A stretch of DNA of 32,000 bases from assembly GCA_003144275.1 (NCBI GenBank), contig NJBF01000016.1, forward strand, positions 30,001 through 62,000. The letters are read 5' to 3'. The stretch is from Candidatus Heimdallarchaeota archaeon B3_Heim. Lineage in GTDB: Archaea > Asgardarchaeota > Heimdallarchaeia > Hodarchaeales > Hodarchaeaceae. The position numbers were made by a program, and so were the translations under genes. Shown in pieces: positions 10,507 to 18,930 of this stretch; position 1 is the stretch's first letter, and each line of letters opens with the position of its first letter. A model generated the notes under the pieces. It had not been told where the DNA came from and made no database searches. It was given only the letters and a program-made list of their open reading frames with translations.

Positions 10507-10875
10507 ATGTCTTATCAAGATGATATGAACGCTTTAATCCAAAATGGATATGTGTCAATCGTTACAATTTTAGATCCTAATGGGGCTCCCTATTGGACAA
10601 ACCAACCCGAATGGCAAGTTGATGGCCCTGCTCTTTTATCCTCATGGCAAAACAAAGAGCCAGGTGTTAATATTGCTGGAGTTCGTTACTCCAGTATGGT
10701 TAATGATTGGGAAGTTGGCAACTATGTAGCCCGAAATGTAGGCGGAGCAGGAATAATTTGCCTAGTACGAGCGCCAAATAATTATTATTTTTTGACCTGG
10801 ACTCCTGGTGATGTTCAGATTCCTTCTATCAATGTCCACGGCGAAGTAGCAAAGATGGCTATTAAATTCCAGTAA
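10507..10875 (+). CDS. Asgard profilin
   Basis: 122 aa. MSYQDDMNALIQNGYVSIVTILDPNG..YW parallels eukaryotic MSWQ.YVD.L..G.V..AAI.G.DG..WA, and GVNIAGVRY parallels GL.L.G.KY. Confidence 0.8.
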   Translation: MSYQDDMNALIQNGYVSIVTILDPNGAPYWTNQPEWQVDGPALLSSWQNKEPGVNIAGVRYSSMVNDWEVGNYVARNVGGAGIICLVRAPNNYYFLTWTPGDVQIPSINVHGEVAKMAIKFQ

Positions 10876-11035: not shown

Positions 11036-13834
11036 ATGAACGGCCAATGGAAAAATACTTTTGTTTCACTAAGCAACATTAGAAAAAATCTTCTTGCGGT
11101 AAGTTCCACCTCTGATATTTCATCAAATGACTTTGTAAATCAATACCTCTTGCAAATGACAGTTTTATGGACTTTACAGAAACATCGGTACTTCAATGAT
11201 GATGAAAACTATTTTATTACGATGTTCCATTTAATTGAAAAGAAAGATCAAAATATTCCTTTCAATACTTACAATGAGTTTATAAATTCATTATTAATAG
11301 AATTATCCGCATTGAATGATAATCATCTTAGCATAGACCAACGATTTGGGCGATTACGGGGCTGTAAATCTGCGATATTTATCAATATTTCACATTTACA
11401 CAAGAAAGCAAATTTCTCTAATGCAAATTACTACAATTCATTAAAATCGCATTTAAGTGATAATGAAATTTCCAAGTCACTGGGAATATTGACAGTTCTT
11501 GATCGAATAGATTTTGAAATTAACGGAACATTTTTGGGGTCCTTATATGAGTGGTTGATATCATCTAGAACCAAAAGGAAAGGGGGAGTATATTATACTC
11601 CTGTGGAACTAACAGCTTATATTTCGCGCTACTCAGTAAGAACGCTACTAATGGGTCAGTTTGGGGTTAAATCTAGATATTCACCTGATGCTTGGGTTAC
11701 TTATTTCGAGTCCCTTGATAGCACTGGTTTATTAAGATTGTATGAAACATTAATTAATTTAACGATACTAGATCCCGCTGTTGGTACTGGACAATTCTTA
11801 GAAAGTGTTATCGACGAATTATTATCAATATATTCTAACCTAGTCAAAAAATTTAAAGCGCTAAATCTGTCACTACCCCTCAATCTTATTACCAATCGAT
11901 CTTGTAACACTGGAAACCTAATCGATCTTACAAAGATTATAGATCAGACAGAATTTGAATTCTATTTATTAACACATCTGATTTTTCCAAAATCATTATA
12001 TGGAGTAGATATAGACCCTTTTGTCATTCCTTTCACAAAGACTCGGTTATTCATTTCTTTTGCTCACCGAATTAAGCTTCATGAGAAAGATTTTCATTTC
12101 ATTAATCCATTCCAGTGTAATTTAAAGATTGGAGACGCACTTTTGATGGCTTGGGAGGATTTCTTCCCTAAAACATTGACGAAGAAAAATAATTTCTCTC
12201 TTATTCTTACCAATCCCCCTTATATTGGAGAAAGTGACAATAAGGAACTATTTAGGAAATATTCGGTTGCTTATCCTACTTATTATGAGGGAAAACTCAA
12301 CATTTGGTATCTATTTTTTCATTTAGCCCTTAATTTAGTTCAATCTGGAGGTATTGTATCTTTTTTAGTTTCTAATTATTGGTTGACTGCCTCAGGAGCT
12401 TCAAAATTACGTAAAAGAATGCTGCAAGAAACTTTTATTTTAGAATTTATTGATTTTAAAGAAAATCGTTTGTTTGAAGGAGCTCAAGGTATTCATTCTA
12501 GTATAATCACCTTAAAGAAGCTGAAAAAGCAAAATTCATCCATAAATTGTGTTTTCTATACAAAGAAAGAACCAATGAACAATCAGCTTCTAAATAAGAT
12601 GTCAAATCAATTGGTATTCCAAATTAACCAGAAAAATCTTACGTTAAACAATTGGGATGATTATTTTCATTTTCTTCCTTCTGATGTCTCTCTCATACTG
12701 GAAAAGGTAATTAATAGATCCTCCCCTCTTAGAGCTTCAACCTACACAGTAAAAGAAGGACTGATCACAGGGCTTAACAAGATCACTAAACGTCAAGTTG
12801 AGAAATATGGTTACCATTCAACTTGGATAAATCGTGGTATATATGTGTTTGATATTAAAAATATTAATGACCAAAAGACAATTCAGACATTTACGACTGA
12901 GGAAAATAAATATTTACATCCCTTATACAAAAGTTCGTCTATAGTAGATTATTCAACACGAGTTAAGACTGATCAACGCTTTCTTTATCTAGTAAGGAGA
13001 GATGTAGATATTTCCACAATCCCAAATATAAAAAAACATCTTGATCAATATCAAACGGCTACATATAATTCGTTAGATCACCCTCCATACATTAATCGTC
13101 CTCGAAAAAAAGAAATCTTTCTCTCTCCAAAACTTGTGACTCCTCAAAGAGCACGGAAAACACATTTTGGGTATAGCTGCACAGAATGGTTTGCTGCTCA
13201 AGATGTATATTTTGTTCTCGAAGAGAAAAATAATATTCAAAAATTGAAAATTCTCCTTATTCTTCTGCAATCGAAGGTATCTTTCTTTTGGTTCTCTTGG
13301 ATGGGGAAAAAAAAGGGCTCTCAGATGGAGTTTTTTGGTGAGTCAGTTTCAAACTTTCCCATTCCTAAGAAATTGAATAAAGGAGATCTTCTAGCACGGA
13401 TCGCTGATTACTTAATTTTTCTGAACTCCCTAGAAAACAAGCAAAGTGAATATGAACAACTAAGGAGGTTTCTAGAGGAAGGAATCGCTAATATTATTGT
13501 TTATAAGAGTTATTTTAACGACCTTATACTCACTTCTCCAAGTCAAAATCAACTTTACGAGGATGTCTGTGTTTTTCTAGTTAAATCTCTTGAAAAAATT
13601 GACATTGAACATTTTTTAAAAATCCGATATGCCATTTCTGTCACAGAAAATGTTACCACGACTAATAAAACAGAATTCATTAAACTAAAAGAGTCTATCT
13701 TATCTAAAATTAATGCTTCCTTTCATAAATTAGTTTCTGATAAGAGGATTGAAAAATTGAATAGGGAAATAAGCACAAGCCAAATTGTAGAACAGATAGG
13801 CAATTATTATGATTCTAAAAACCATTTAATCTAG
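11036..13834 (+). CDS. Gamma-class N6-adenine DNA methyltransferase (Eco57I/TaqI-like) with C-terminal TRD and no nuclease domain
   Basis: GGVYYTP, motif I ILDPAVGTGQF (~11771), YGVDID, motif IV NPPY (~12212), TaqI_C-like PKLVTPQ. An in-frame TAA just before the ATG rules out an N-terminal extension. Confidence 0.9.
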   Translation: MNGQWKNTFVSLSNIRKNLLAVSSTSDISSNDFVNQYLLQMTVLWTLQKHRYFNDDENYFITMFHLIEKKDQNIPFNTYNEFINSLLIELSALNDNHLSIDQRFGRLRGCKSAIFINISHLHKKANFSNANYYNSLKSHLSDNEISKSLGILTVLDRIDFEINGTFLGSLYEWLISSRTKRKGGVYYTPVELTAYISRYSVRTLLMGQFGVKSRYSPDAWVTYFESLDSTGLLRLYETLINLTILDPAVGTGQFLESVIDELLSIYSNLVKKFKALNLSLPLNLITNRSCNTGNLIDLTKIIDQTEFEFYLLTHLIFPKSLYGVDIDPFVIPFTKTRLFISFAHRIKLHEKDFHFINPFQCNLKIGDALLMAWEDFFPKTLTKKNNFSLILTNPPYIGESDNKELFRKYSVAYPTYYEGKLNIWYLFFHLALNLVQSGGIVSFLVSNYWLTASGASKLRKRMLQETFILEFIDFKENRLFEGAQGIHSSIITLKKLKKQNSSINCVFYTKKEPMNNQLLNKMSNQLVFQINQKNLTLNNWDDYFHFLPSDVSLILEKVINRSSPLRASTYTVKEGLITGLNKITKRQVEKYGYHSTWINRGIYVFDIKNINDQKTIQTFTTEENKYLHPLYKSSSIVDYSTRVKTDQRFLYLVRRDVDISTIPNIKKHLDQYQTATYNSLDHPPYINRPRKKEIFLSPKLVTPQRARKTHFGYSCTEWFAAQDVYFVLEEKNNIQKLKILLILLQSKVSFFWFSWMGKKKGSQMEFFGESVSNFPIPKKLNKGDLLARIADYLIFLNSLENKQSEYEQLRRFLEEGIANIIVYKSYFNDLILTSPSQNQLYEDVCVFLVKSLEKIDIEHFLKIRYAISVTENVTTTNKTEFIKLKESILSKINASFHKLVSDKRIEKLNREISTSQIVEQIGNYYDSKNHLI

Positions 13835-13897
13835 AAAATATATCAAGGAATTTCATATTAAAAATTAATTTGTCTTTTTAAAGTTCTAAGCTAGTGA

Positions 13898-14836
13898 TCA
13901 ATTGAAATAATAATTAAGAGATCGTATATGATCTTGAGAGACAATCTTTTTCATTCTTTTCTTAATTGATCTCACATAAGAAACTTGCTCAATTTTTAGG
14001 CAATAATTCTGAGCAGTAAGAAATATCCATACGTTCCATAGTGCACGATTTATCCATCCTCGACTGCCTGGTTGCTGTAATTGTGCAAAATTCTCAAGGA
14101 AAGCTGGTTTATACTTATCAAAAAGTTCTACTGTAAACCATTTCCTAGTTCTTGATGATTTTCTTGCGCTAGGAACTGATCTAGAACCCTCAGGAGTATA
14201 ACAATCTCCAATTGCAGCATTTCTCCTCCATCCGATCCAATCTATTGACTCAAGATTGTTCTTGAACGCCAATTGATGAAAAGGGCTCCCTAACCCAAAT
14301 CCATGAAATTTTTGGTCAGTTATTGAACGAAATTTGGCTAACCAAGCAGCAACATCGAAAACACTTCCTTTTTCGTTAATTTTAAGTGAAGAAACCATTC
14401 CTCCCAATCCGATATTGGAAACTGAATAATCTATTGTATTTATTTTTGGGAAATGAACGACTGGTAATATTGGATGATCTATACTCTGCATTAAAGTAGA
14501 CCAATTGCTAAAAGATCTATACTGATTTCCGATGACATCAAGATTCACAATTATATCACTGTCATATACCCCTATATTCTTAAGAAAATCAGTGTAATTT
14601 TCTAACGAAATTGCGATACCTGAATGATGTGCACTGTAGGCACCAGAGTCAATCATTATAGGCCCATCGAAAGAAAAATAGTCATGCAAACCGATTGCTT
14701 TAATTCTTTGAATGCATTTTCTAAATTGCCAATAAGAAAACAATATTCCAGATTTTTTCTTATGCATACATCGCTTAATTTCATTTTCATATAACCAAGG
14801 AAAAAATCCCTGTACAATACCTAAGTATAATTTCAA
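13898..14836 (-). CDS. TGT-fold guanine transglycosylase, DpdA-like (paralog 1)
   Basis: IDSGAY, NLDVIG, PVVH, GLGGMV, FHGFG and SIDW motifs map onto the TGT barrel catalytic positions; no CxCxxC zinc motif. TTG start. Confidence 0.8.
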   Translation of the reverse strand: MKLYLGIVQGFFPWLYENEIKRCMHKKKSGILFSYWQFRKCIQRIKAIGLHDYFSFDGPIMIDSGAYSAHHSGIAISLENYTDFLKNIGVYDSDIIVNLDVIGNQYRSFSNWSTLMQSIDHPILPVVHFPKINTIDYSVSNIGLGGMVSSLKINEKGSVFDVAAWLAKFRSITDQKFHGFGLGSPFHQLAFKNNLESIDWIGWRRNAAIGDCYTPEGSRSVPSARKSSRTRKWFTVELFDKYKPAFLENFAQLQQPGSRGWINRALWNVWIFLTAQNYCLKIEQVSYVRSIKKRMKKIVSQDHIRSLNYYFN

Positions 14837-14952
14837 AACAAATTTTACCCCTAAATCAATTTAATACATCACAAAAATATGATGGTATCAATCGTATAAT
14901 TACAAATAATTTTCCTCTATAATTAGCTGTGTGATAATAAAGGTGTAAATAT

Positions 14953-15426
14953 ATGTCACCGCCAAAATACCTCCTCATTATTTCATGTGGGAAGAAAAAA
15001 TCGGAGGAACTCAAACATCATGCTTTGAAAGCAGAGGAGGCATATAAAGGACCAATGTTTCAAGTCATAAACAAAGCGAAAAGGGAAAATAGGTGGGGTG
15101 ATAATCTGAAACTAGGCGTCGTGTCAGCAAAATATGGATTCTTACGAGAAAGTGACTTAATCACCTACTATGATCTTAAAATGACGAAACCTATTGCCAA
15201 ACAGCTTCATTCGAAAGTAATTGAGAGTATTCGAAGTTGGTATTACGCTGAATTATTTTCATTAATATATGTGATCATGGGTAAGGATTATTTAGCAAGC
15301 GTGAAAGGATTGGAAGATTACATTAAAACCGATGTCAGAATTGAGAATATGGGAGGATTAGGCCTTGGACAGCGAAAACTCTTGGATTTCCTCAATTCAA
15401 TTGATATTTCTGGTTTAGATTCGTGA
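14953..15426 (+). CDS. DUF6884/YaaA-like protein
   Basis: LLIISCGKKK...AEEAYKGPMF...VVSAKYGF...YYDLKM...MGKDY signature. A GGTG RBS lies upstream. Confidence 0.75.
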   Translation: MSPPKYLLIISCGKKKSEELKHHALKAEEAYKGPMFQVINKAKRENRWGDNLKLGVVSAKYGFLRESDLITYYDLKMTKPIAKQLHSKVIESIRSWYYAELFSLIYVIMGKDYLASVKGLEDYIKTDVRIENMGGLGLGQRKLLDFLNSIDISGLDS

Positions 15427-15438
15427 GGAGAAGAAAAA

Positions 15439-16500
15439 ATGAGCTTCGCTTTAGGAACTCCCATCAATGCTCGAATAAGACCTTGGAAATATGATTGGAT
15501 TGTAAAACCTGATTCTTTGATGATCTCCGCCATCGATTTAATGGAAAATTCAAGTTTATTTGAGAAAATAAAGAAAATAGGGGTTCACGAGTATTTAGAA
15601 TGGGACGGTCCTCTAGTCTGTGATTCTGGAGCGTTTTCTGCCATTAATCGAAAGAAGAAGATCAATGTTGAACTCGAACAATTAAAACTGTATTATCGAG
15701 AGTTAACAAGACAAGATCCAAATATTATCAAAATTACATTAGATTATCCTGATGAGAATATCCTCTCAAATTATTTAGAATTACTTCCGTATGAGATCCA
15801 ACCAGTCATTCCTTATAACCAATTACAGATTTTGGAACAAATAGTAACAGAATCTGGATTACCTGAGTGGAGCTTCATTGGACGCTTAGTTCCTTTAATG
15901 AGAGGAGGTAGTGGATATAAAAATAGATTATTTTCTGCTATCAACGATTTTAAAAACAAATTAGATGAAATTTCTTATAATGAAAAATGTAGAATATGGG
16001 CCTTGGGAGTAGGTGCGCCTAGTATTTTAACCGAGGTATTGACAGCCGTGGATGGATGTGATTCATCTCGTTGGAGAATTACTGGCTCTAATATGATTTT
16101 ACTTCCGCATGGAGGGGAACGTGGAGTTGGTAACAAGACTAAATGGAGGGGAACTCATCGTAGAATTGAAGAGGGGGATGAAAAAATGTTGGTTTTACAA
16201 ATTTTACAACAAATAGATACTCTCTCAGGAGGATTAGAAACTCTTGATAAATCATTATGGTTTAATAAGAATCCTAAACAGCTTAAAAATCATTTTGAAG
16301 TAAATTTACCAAGTATTGGAAAGCTTATAGAAAAATTAAGAAACAATATTCAAACAATGACGGTTTACGACTTAGAATTGTTATTAAGAAGTTCTGGAAA
16401 TCTACGTCTTATATTCAATTACTTTGCTGCATTGCATTACAAGCTAGAAGAAAGAGATAATACTAATTATGAGAACAATAATCCATACTTCATAATCTAG
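15439..16500 (+). CDS. TGT-fold guanine transglycosylase-like protein, DpdA-like (paralog 2, altered pocket)
   Basis: CDSGAF, TLDYP, WALGVG and DGCDSSRW motifs. GVHEYLEWDGPLVCDSGAFSA aligns with paralog 1 GLHDYFSFDGPIMIDSGAYSA. No zinc motif. Confidence 0.78.
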   Translation: MSFALGTPINARIRPWKYDWIVKPDSLMISAIDLMENSSLFEKIKKIGVHEYLEWDGPLVCDSGAFSAINRKKKINVELEQLKLYYRELTRQDPNIIKITLDYPDENILSNYLELLPYEIQPVIPYNQLQILEQIVTESGLPEWSFIGRLVPLMRGGSGYKNRLFSAINDFKNKLDEISYNEKCRIWALGVGAPSILTEVLTAVDGCDSSRWRITGSNMILLPHGGERGVGNKTKWRGTHRRIEEGDEKMLVLQILQQIDTLSGGLETLDKSLWFNKNPKQLKNHFEVNLPSIGKLIEKLRNNIQTMTVYDLELLLRSSGNLRLIFNYFAALHYKLEERDNTNYENNNPYFII

Positions 16501-16512
16501 AGATGCTCATTA

Positions 16513-18930: not shown

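Follow-up and report, generated by a model that had tools for sequence, protein, structure and literature searches.

A chromosomally fixed gene cluster in Hodarchaeales pairs two DpdA-like transglycosylases with two DNA methylases and is a candidate DNA-marking module

We analyzed a 32,000-nucleotide window from Candidatus Heimdallarchaeota archaeon B3_Heim, an Asgard archaeon of the order Hodarchaeales (positions 30001-62000 of contig NJBF01000016.1, assembly GCA_003144275.1), whose metagenome-assembled genome (MAG) spans 3.95 Mb at 94% completeness. The window carries five contiguous genes encoding two divergent proteins with the fold of tRNA-guanine transglycosylases (TGT), here called TGT1 and TGT2, together with a DUF6884-family protein and two DNA methylases, MT1 and MT2. 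To date, DNA 7-deazaguanines are documented in phages, in archaeal viruses and in the Dpd islands of bacteria, as part of attack or defence; the cluster described here is genus-wide and chromosomal, and is a candidate for placing such a base, alongside N6-methyladenine (m6A), in cellular DNA. No paper describing the cluster was found in the literature searched, in agreement with an earlier interpretation made from the DNA letters (hereafter the sequence-only reading), to which this gene combination was unfamiliar as a described system.

A five-gene cluster in the window

The cluster comprises five genes and one divergent intergenic region:

11036-13834, + strand: MT1, a 932-aa gamma-class N6-adenine DNA methyltransferase of the Eco57I/MmeI family
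13898-14836, - strand: TGT1, a DpdA-like transglycosylase of 312 aa that comprises nothing beyond the TGT catalytic barrel
14837-14952, no strand: AT-rich divergent spacer of 116 nt that separates TGT1 from the DUF6884-TGT2-MT2 operon
14953-15426, + strand: DUF6884 protein, 157 aa, of the YaaA/DpdC-like 'cantaloupe' fold family
15439-16500, + strand: TGT2, a 353-aa, highly divergent TGT-fold paralogue
16513-18930, + strand: MT2, an 805-aa beta-class (Mod-like) N6/N4 DNA methyltransferase

An open reading frame listing confirmed the contiguity, order, strands and coordinates given by the sequence-only reading, including the 12-nt gaps of the + strand operon (15427-15438 and 16501-16512). Its gene identities were also right, as judged by the Pfam and PADLOC matches and predicted TGT folds described below. 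Both archaeal promoters are presumed to lie in the 14837-14952 spacer; a promoter and terminator scan of bacterial type, a method unsuited to archaea, returned no more sites than shuffled sequence did.

TGT1 and TGT2 are minimal, zinc-free TGT-fold proteins

AlphaFold (AF2) models built from orthologue alignments (pLDDT 91 for TGT1 and 86 for TGT2) gave a Foldseek probability of 1.00 for the TGT fold in both proteins. The best structural match was in each case the archaeal TGT (aTGT) of P. horikoshii, 1iq8, which TGT1 matched over residues 34-360 (Z 25.1, root-mean-square deviation 3.5 Å, 282 aligned residues) and TGT2 over residues 34-327 (Z 19.1, 4.1 Å, 267 aligned residues). Since the two models cover only residues 34 to ~330-360 of the 577 in aTGT, TGT1 and TGT2 are read as catalytic domains that lack the first 33 residues of aTGT as well as its C1, C2 and PUA tRNA-binding domains. 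The lid formed by the N-terminal beta-sheet of TGTs is likewise missing from Salmonella DpdA (PMC10164549). No bacterial DpdA structure was among the best 50 matches listed in either structural search.

At the sequence level the similarity is faint. Pfam TGT was not reached by either protein (E 0.07 and 0.013), the matches of TGT2 to TGT were weak and centered around DSGAF, and PDB searches with the single proteins and with the TGT1 profile yielded short, weak TGT matches only. The two proteins nonetheless align to each other, with hhalign connecting TGT2 to the TGT1 profile at 98% probability (E 1.9e-13). That alignment superimposes an aspartate triad (D63/D100/D199 in TGT1, D62/D102/D208 in TGT2) which also aligns with the DSGGF and FDCV..RNA motifs of TGTs and supplies the general acid motif (DSGAY and DSGAF, respectively), the base-binding aspartate and the nucleophile. 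We take the triad to be equivalent to D102/D156/D280 of the Z. mobilis enzyme and D95/D130/D256 of Salmonella DpdA. All three residues are invariant in TGT1 and TGT2 orthologues and are kept in 86-87 of 87 remote relatives.

The proteins differ from one another, and from many of their relatives, around this catalytic core. The zinc motif CxCxxC occurs in none of 34 TGT1 orthologues and none of 29 TGT2 orthologues, and in 52 of the 89 sequences in the remote-relative alignment, TGT1 and TGT2 included. TGT1 retains both near-invariant histidines of the family, H128 and H178, whereas TGT2 has P125 and W187 at the columns where 81/87 and 86/87 relatives have histidine. The base-pocket histidine is His181 in Salmonella DpdA and His196 in phage 9g DpdA, and absent in DpdA2; which of H128 and H178 occupies the column of His181 was judged from spacing, not by superposition on DpdA. 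Because the triad is shared, and the histidine pair is kept in TGT1 and replaced in TGT2, TGT1 is by its residues a complete enzyme of the TGT-like family, while TGT2 is predicted to keep the chemistry within a remodelled base pocket. After the barrel, TGT2 continues into a cysteine-free helical C-terminal part. TGT1 begins with a TTG start codon where its orthologues have an initial methionine. A complex prediction for TGT1 with TGT2, run without controls, scored 0.00 and says nothing either way.

TGT1 resembles viral DpdA and TGT2 is confined to Hodarchaeales

The curated TGT and DpdA models were not reached at cut-off by either protein. The TgtA equivalog, which has its cut-off at 350 bits, gave 28.6 and 18.7, NCBIfam NF041059 (bacterial DpdA) did not match either protein at E <= 1, the PADLOC DpdA profiles were unmatched by both, and TGT1 did not match DUF6610, the DpdA4 family. 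The viral family phrog_887, by comparison, matched TGT1 at 6.4e-20 over residues 14-284, against 4.7e-7 for TgtA, and TGT2 at 4.4e-5. TGT1 shares 24-30% identity with DpdA-type proteins encoded by phages of Vibrio, Mycobacterium and E. coli and by the Sulfolobus viruses STSV1/2, and it has 51 relatives in viral contigs. On these scores, TGT1 lies closer to viral DpdA than to the tRNA enzymes. A pattern search yielded no viral relative of TGT2, and the pattern-based locus searches reached only close relatives among genomes.

TGT2 stands further apart, with a full-library hidden Markov model search returning only 110 clusters at E <= 1e-3. Its orthologues (54-96% identity) are present in all but one of the other genus genomes (20/21) and in both genomes of the sister family (2/2); in the rest of the phylum the search gave distant relatives or aTGT only, so that TGT2, as far as sequence similarity can tell, is specific to the order Hodarchaeales. 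Each paralogue is closer by profile score to a generic family of short archaeal proteins than to its partner, so the pair is not the product of a recent duplication.

A DpdC-like DUF6884 protein

The protein encoded between the two TGT-like genes matched Pfam DUF6884 (4.2e-10; 40.3 bits, where the cut-off is 30) and fell just short of the cut-off for YaaA (1.6e-6). In PADLOC it matched PDC-M57A (6e-8) and, weakly, two DpdC profiles (1.3e-4 and 4.1e-4, over ~55-70 residues). The motifs SCGKKK (CxxxK) and VSAKYG (SAxxG) are invariant in 20 DUF6884 orthologues, and correspond to the CxxxK and LSAxxG motifs that Pfam's authors describe for DUF6884, to which they ascribe a YaaA-like DNA-binding fold and a modelled base-flipping site (PMC11701544). 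A genome-mining study reports DUF6884 as the domain of dpdC (bioRxiv 10.1101/2025.02.24.639861), and elsewhere DpdC is filed under the sister family DUF328/YaaA (PMC12839542). The sequence-only reading had recognized no dpdB, dpdC or queC in the cluster. This held for DpdB (PF14072), for which there was no match anywhere in the genome, and for QueC; a DpdC-like protein, however, is recognizable through the DUF6884 family and the weak PADLOC matches.

Two DNA methylases and no nuclease

MT1 matched Eco57I (8.9e-28), N6_Mtase (2.3e-13), MmeI_Mtase (1.2e-11) and TaqI_C (2e-6) in Pfam, and is laid out as a helical spacer, a methyltransferase core with the motifs DPAVGTGQF and NPPY, and a target-recognition domain of TaqI_C type. 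The PADLOC IIG profile was matched in its C-terminal half only, and residues 1-230 resemble the MmeI_hel helical spacer rather than MmeI_N, both in features (0.95) and in Atlas structure (TM 0.73). MT1 has no nuclease match in Pfam, and no PD-(D/E)XK endonuclease domain was found at its N-terminus. A possible nuclease motif, D56..E68xK70, was dropped, as the pattern is not conserved in the orthologue alignment. Because the N-terminus resembles a helical spacer and D..ExK is not conserved, we consider MT1 a methylase without an endonuclease.

MT2 matched N6_N4_Mtase (6e-41) at residues 418-654 in Pfam, and MTase_III (1.3e-53) among the Type III Mod-like profiles of PADLOC. This C-terminal copy, which carries DPPF and FAGSG, is the active one. 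The N-terminal half (16513-17700), a degenerate, partial copy of the protein's own methylase domain that lacks DPPY and FxGxG, matched N6_N4_Mtase at 6.6e-6 over residues 81-181 when scanned alone, and MT2 contains a 43-aa internal repeat (40% identity, E 9e-7). The arrangement suggests a single-chain pseudo-dimer. No Res-like gene for a helicase-nuclease subunit occurs in the region of the window examined, and the gene following MT2 encodes YjbQ/UPF0047 (2.4e-35). The absence of a nuclease from the cluster, as the sequence-only reading had it, is thus upheld.

The cluster is syntenic across the genus

Conservation was examined with tblastn of the window proteins against 20 loci of the genus, which share the order profilin - MT1 - TGT1(-) - DUF6884 - TGT2 - MT2 - YjbQ - TFIIB. 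The linkage is conserved in this set: DUF6884 adjoins TGT2 in 20/20 loci, MT2 lies downstream of TGT2 in 17/20, TGT1 is found nearly everywhere, and MT1 has orthologues in ~9/20. Because the order recurs, the arrangement is not one of chance. Cluster genes are more diverged than the flanking genes, yet their position is kept, and G+C dips slightly, from ~0.35-0.38 around the cluster to 0.31-0.35 within it. There is no tRNA gene in the window and no integrase among the flanking genes scanned with Pfam. Neither DpdD-K helicases nor a PLD nuclease occur between profilin and YjbQ, here or in the syntenic loci of other genus genomes. The locus is therefore, on comparative grounds, vertically inherited and chromosomal, and 'island', the term used in the sequence-only reading, does not fit in the sense of a sporadic element.

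The surroundings of the cluster are made up of housekeeping and eukaryote-signature genes and not of mobile-element genes. Upstream lies a small profilin-like gene (10507-10875; weak Pfam match, E 0.012; 67-98% identity across the genus), and the TFIIB gene follows further downstream, at 20054-21052.

Such a setting is also what would be expected if the TGT-like enzymes modified tRNA or rRNA as part of a housekeeping locus, with the methylases as mere neighbours or as RNA methylases themselves. Near-universal occurrence in the genus at one syntenic site, the housekeeping flanks (profilin, TFIIB and YjbQ), the lack of a restriction partner and the identity of the best structural match, aTGT, all speak for this explanation. 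Against it, the C1, C2 and PUA domains are missing from both proteins, which also fall far below the TgtA cut-off, and a complete, bona fide TgtA with a PUA domain is encoded elsewhere in the genome (contig C38, 697 aa, 507.6 bits). MT1, moreover, carries a TaqI/MmeI-type DNA target-recognition domain and MT2 is Mod-like, and relatives of the TGT-like genes adjoin DNA methylases, HerA-NurA and nucleases of the PLD and PD-(D/E)XK types. On balance we regard an RNA-modifying role as quite unlikely.

Several genus members depart from the common arrangement. In two genomes (L076:2-7645(-) and L046:1-8463), a 12-kb insert separates TGT1 from DUF6884 and encodes a surface protein of giant size (>2,500 aa; Laminin_G_3/DUF2341), along with a glyoxalase, an HTH_10 regulator and, directly upstream of DUF6884, an EamA transporter. 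A second subclade (L033, L032 and L045) carries two extra genes within the cluster: a DUF362 gene (~300 aa; L033:7566-8468(+)) that separates TGT1 from DUF6884, and an MFS_1 transporter gene (432 aa; L033:10111-11409(+)) that separates TGT2 from MT2. MT1 is replaced beside TGT1 in L033 and L032 by an N6_N4/UPF0020 methylase of 442-455 aa, for which L045 has a weak 267-aa match. L045 comes from a closed but 70%-complete MAG and has no MT2; its TGT2 (L045:8173-9897(-)) is cut at residue 296 and runs in-frame into a truncated aspartate/ornithine carbamoyltransferase, a fusion that is either a real gene-breaking rearrangement or a misassembly.

Genes for precursor transport and base finishing recur beside remote relatives

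We examined the neighbourhoods of eleven remote TGT-like relatives from metagenomes. The same few genes recur beside them: Vut_1/YhhQ, the queuosine-precursor transporter family, in 4 of the 11 loci, QueC in 1, DUF5591, which we take to be the ArcS domain, in 3, and DUF6884/YaaA-like proteins in 3. An N6_N4 methylase is present in 2, HerA in 6, NurA in 3 and PLD in 1. The orthologue profile of the Hodarchaeales DUF6884 protein matches the DUF6884/YaaA neighbours of these remote TGT-like genes at ~1e-11.

Some of these loci form compact cassettes (L095, L092:6001-11543 and L093:1-8498) in which a short TGT-like gene is accompanied by Vut_1, DUF6364 and a DUF6884 or YaaA-like gene, with some adding an N6_N4 methylase, DUF5591, HerA and NurA. 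The order in L095 (2792-10872) is Vut_1 - DUF6364 - TGT-like - x - N6_N4 methyltransferase - DUF6884 - HerA - NurA. No description of such TGT-like/Vut_1/DUF6884 metagenome cassettes was found in the literature searched. Beside them, the Hodarchaeales cluster looks like the modification half, chromosomally fixed without an effector.

Other Asgard classes carry single or twin 390-aa DpdA-like genes beside an N6_N4 methylase (L049:6478-12537 and L048:7915-11103), with further neighbours that are either a PLD/NgoFVII-like nuclease together with an AIPR protein, or else a PD-(D/E)XK nuclease. These loci look like a restriction-equipped cousin of the window cluster.

The sequence-only reading had proposed two functions: (a) a dual m6A and deazaguanine system drawing on host preQ0, and (b) a restriction-like system built on a TGT-fold glycosylase that excises bases. 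In the second case, a TGT-fold enzyme would excise bases from foreign DNA, for example of viruses that bear deazaguanine or lack m6A, while the methylases shield the host. DNA glycosylases that excise 7-deazaguanine are a proven class of defence, with other folds (bioRxiv 10.1101/2025.10.29.685425). The covalent glycosyl-enzyme intermediate of the TGT reaction could in principle be resolved by water, and two methylases do adjoin the TGT-like enzymes. We know of no TGT-fold glycosylase, however, and the general acid/base and the nucleophile, a pairing characteristic of exchange and not of hydrolysis, are both intact. A patchy distribution is usual for defence systems, and this locus is genus-fixed; its relatives, in turn, adjoin transporters for precursors and enzymes that finish bases, an association that is sensible only for insertion. 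Excision found no specific support, and we consider it very unlikely.

The precursor is probably salvaged

The QueC equivalog scored above its cut-off in 0 of 22 genus genomes, and QueD-like matches in the B3_Heim genome fell under the cut-off. An apparent preQ0 cluster on contig C55, with a 'QueC' and a QueD-like gene, was rejected: NCBIfam identifies the former as ThiI-like, and the intervening gene is GcvH-like. The QueE model TIGR03365 found nothing over its cut-off in the genus, a result that is uninformative given that the model passes in just 1 of 14 control genomes. A Vut_1/YhhQ-type transporter, on the other hand, is encoded in 20 of 22 genus genomes, outside the cluster and elsewhere in the genome. 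With QueC missing from all genomes and the transporter present in nearly all, the cell more likely salvages a 7-deazaguanine precursor than makes one, which is the most economical reading of these gene contents. A comparable dependence is known in phages, whose DpdAs draw on host preQ0 where synthesis genes are missing (PMC6884629). Of the two proposals in the sequence-only reading, the dual m6A and deazaguanine system is the better supported; its supply from preQ0 made by the host gives way to salvage as the likelier source.

The same gene content touches tRNA metabolism: across the genus, and in the B3_Heim genome with regard to contigs C55, C97 and C44, no QueC passed its cut-off, yet a full TgtA and a Vut_1/YhhQ-type transporter are present, and the supply of 7-deazaguanine precursors by salvage may be needed for archaeosine as well.

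Absence of QueC also bears on a different explanation, that bases in DNA are indeed exchanged and that one or both enzymes, TGT2 in particular, insert some other purine analogue, perhaps imported by the MFS or EamA transporters that other genus members have within the cluster. The proline and tryptophan of TGT2 at near-invariant histidine columns fit this explanation, as do the MFS or EamA transporters and the DUF362 protein inside the cluster of other genomes. TGT1, however, keeps the full family pocket, a YhhQ-type transporter exists in the genus, and the relatives pair specifically with YhhQ-type transporters, QueC and the ArcS-like DUF5591. An analogue of another kind is, in our estimate, unlikely.

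A proposed module for marking DNA

Taking these lines of evidence together, we infer that the cluster functions as a DpdB-independent, restriction-less module that marks DNA with a 7-deazaguanine and m6A, using a salvaged precursor; we give this interpretation an even chance of being right. A DNA mark is supported by the barrel-only folds that lack tRNA-binding domains, the invariant triad, the viral kinship of TGT1, the presence of TgtA elsewhere in the genome, the DpdC-like DUF6884 protein and the neighbouring methylases, as well as by relatives that adjoin YhhQ, QueC, DUF6884 and methylases, and by a genus that has the transporter and lacks QueC.

In the proposed pathway, a 7-deazaguanine precursor, preQ0 or a relative, would be imported through the YhhQ/Vut_1-type transporter and not made in the cell. 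TGT1 would then swap guanine in DNA for that base by TGT double displacement, with D63 as general acid and D199 as nucleophile, acting without the DpdB ATPase as phage DpdAs do. The DUF6884 protein would bind DNA and finish the inserted base, for example by converting nitrile to amide (dADG), or help to present the base. TGT2 probably exchanges guanine in DNA too, and would be another transglycosylase, one that prefers a different base or sequence, while MT1 and MT2 would methylate N6-adenine at target sites of their own. The marks could serve as a self-mark, as protection against nucleases of invaders or rivals, or as an epigenetic signal, and would not be one half of a classical restriction-modification system.

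Several observations weigh against this proposal. Neither TGT-like protein reaches a curated cut-off for TGT, TgtA or DpdA; both are missing the structural zinc site of TGT and bacterial DpdA, and bacterial DpdA needs DpdB, a ParB/DndB-like ATPase absent from this genome. Having lost two near-invariant histidines, TGT2 may not bind a guanine-like base at all. The DpdC similarity of the DUF6884 protein is weak (E 1e-4), and members of DUF6884 have also been tied to DNA repair (PMC11701544). No route of preQ0 synthesis was detected, and that of salvage is presumed. Finally, a single syntenic site among housekeeping genes, kept genus-wide, fits a housekeeping RNA role equally well.

More tentatively, and leaning somewhat against it, we suggest that the chromosomes of Hodarchaeales carry a heritable 7-deazaguanine-type base together with m6A, written by two DpdA paralogues and a DpdC-like finisher from a salvaged precursor, with no restriction enzyme. 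If true, this would be the first deazaguanine DNA mark of cellular archaea, fixed in the lineage nearest to eukaryotes, with an epigenetic or protective role. Deazaguanine DNA chemistry would thereby extend to cellular archaea and possibly to a non-defence role, in a genus-fixed form that dispenses with restriction, DpdB and precursor synthesis of its own. The mark would affect the sequencing and cloning of Asgard DNA, and could be searched for in existing long-read metagenomes. TGT1 and TGT2 also provide two very different minimal, zinc-free natural enzymes with which to ask how TGTs choose DNA and choose their base.

Comparison with known systems

Bacterial Dpd, exemplified by DpdA/DpdB/DpdC of Salmonella Montevideo (PMC10164549), shares with the window cluster a TGT-fold transglycosylase with the same aspartate triad, a YaaA/DUF6884-family neighbour (DpdC, which acts independently of DpdA/B; PMC10164549) and a predicted chemistry that leads from guanine to preQ0 in DNA and then to ADG. 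Unlike bacterial Dpd, the window cluster has no DpdB, no DpdD-K helicases or nucleases, no zinc site and no preQ0 synthesis genes. It has two very divergent transglycosylases, unmatched by the NCBIfam DpdA model, where Dpd has one, and adds two m6A methylases. Bacterial Dpd is a mobile island, whereas the Hodarchaeales locus is archaeal and vertically inherited.

Closer in some respects are the viral DpdAs (the phage 9g/CAjan type, the 'singleton' DpdAs of Mycobacterium phages and STSV1/2; PMC6884629, PMC10516641). Like them, TGT1 is short and presumably DpdB-independent, and like the singletons it must use a precursor made elsewhere. TGT1 differs in residing on a cellular chromosome, where it is genus-fixed and accompanied by a second paralogue, a DpdC-like gene and methylases; its identity to viral DpdAs is low, and identities of 15-25% are too low for a tree to place TGT1 or TGT2 among DpdA1 to DpdA4.

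The archaeal cassettes L092, L093 and L095 likewise combine a short TGT-like enzyme from this broad family (E 1e-14 to 1e-22 with the TGT2 profile) with a DUF6884/YaaA-like protein and a beta-class DNA methylase. These cassettes, seemingly mobile, have an operon that includes a YhhQ-type transporter and an effector, HerA-NurA (or PLD). The Hodarchaeales locus, which is syntenic throughout the genus, carries no effector, and its transporter is encoded in another part of the genome. BREX-Related Capture systems with a TGT (PMC12839542) are related in idea to these cassettes.

A final parallel comes from the eukaryotic queuine TGT, the QTRT1/QTRT2 heterodimer, in which, as here, one of two paralogous TGT-fold proteins has a complete active site and the other an altered one. 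QTRT2 has lost catalysis whereas TGT2 keeps its three aspartates, and the eukaryotic enzyme is zinc-bearing and acts on tRNA.

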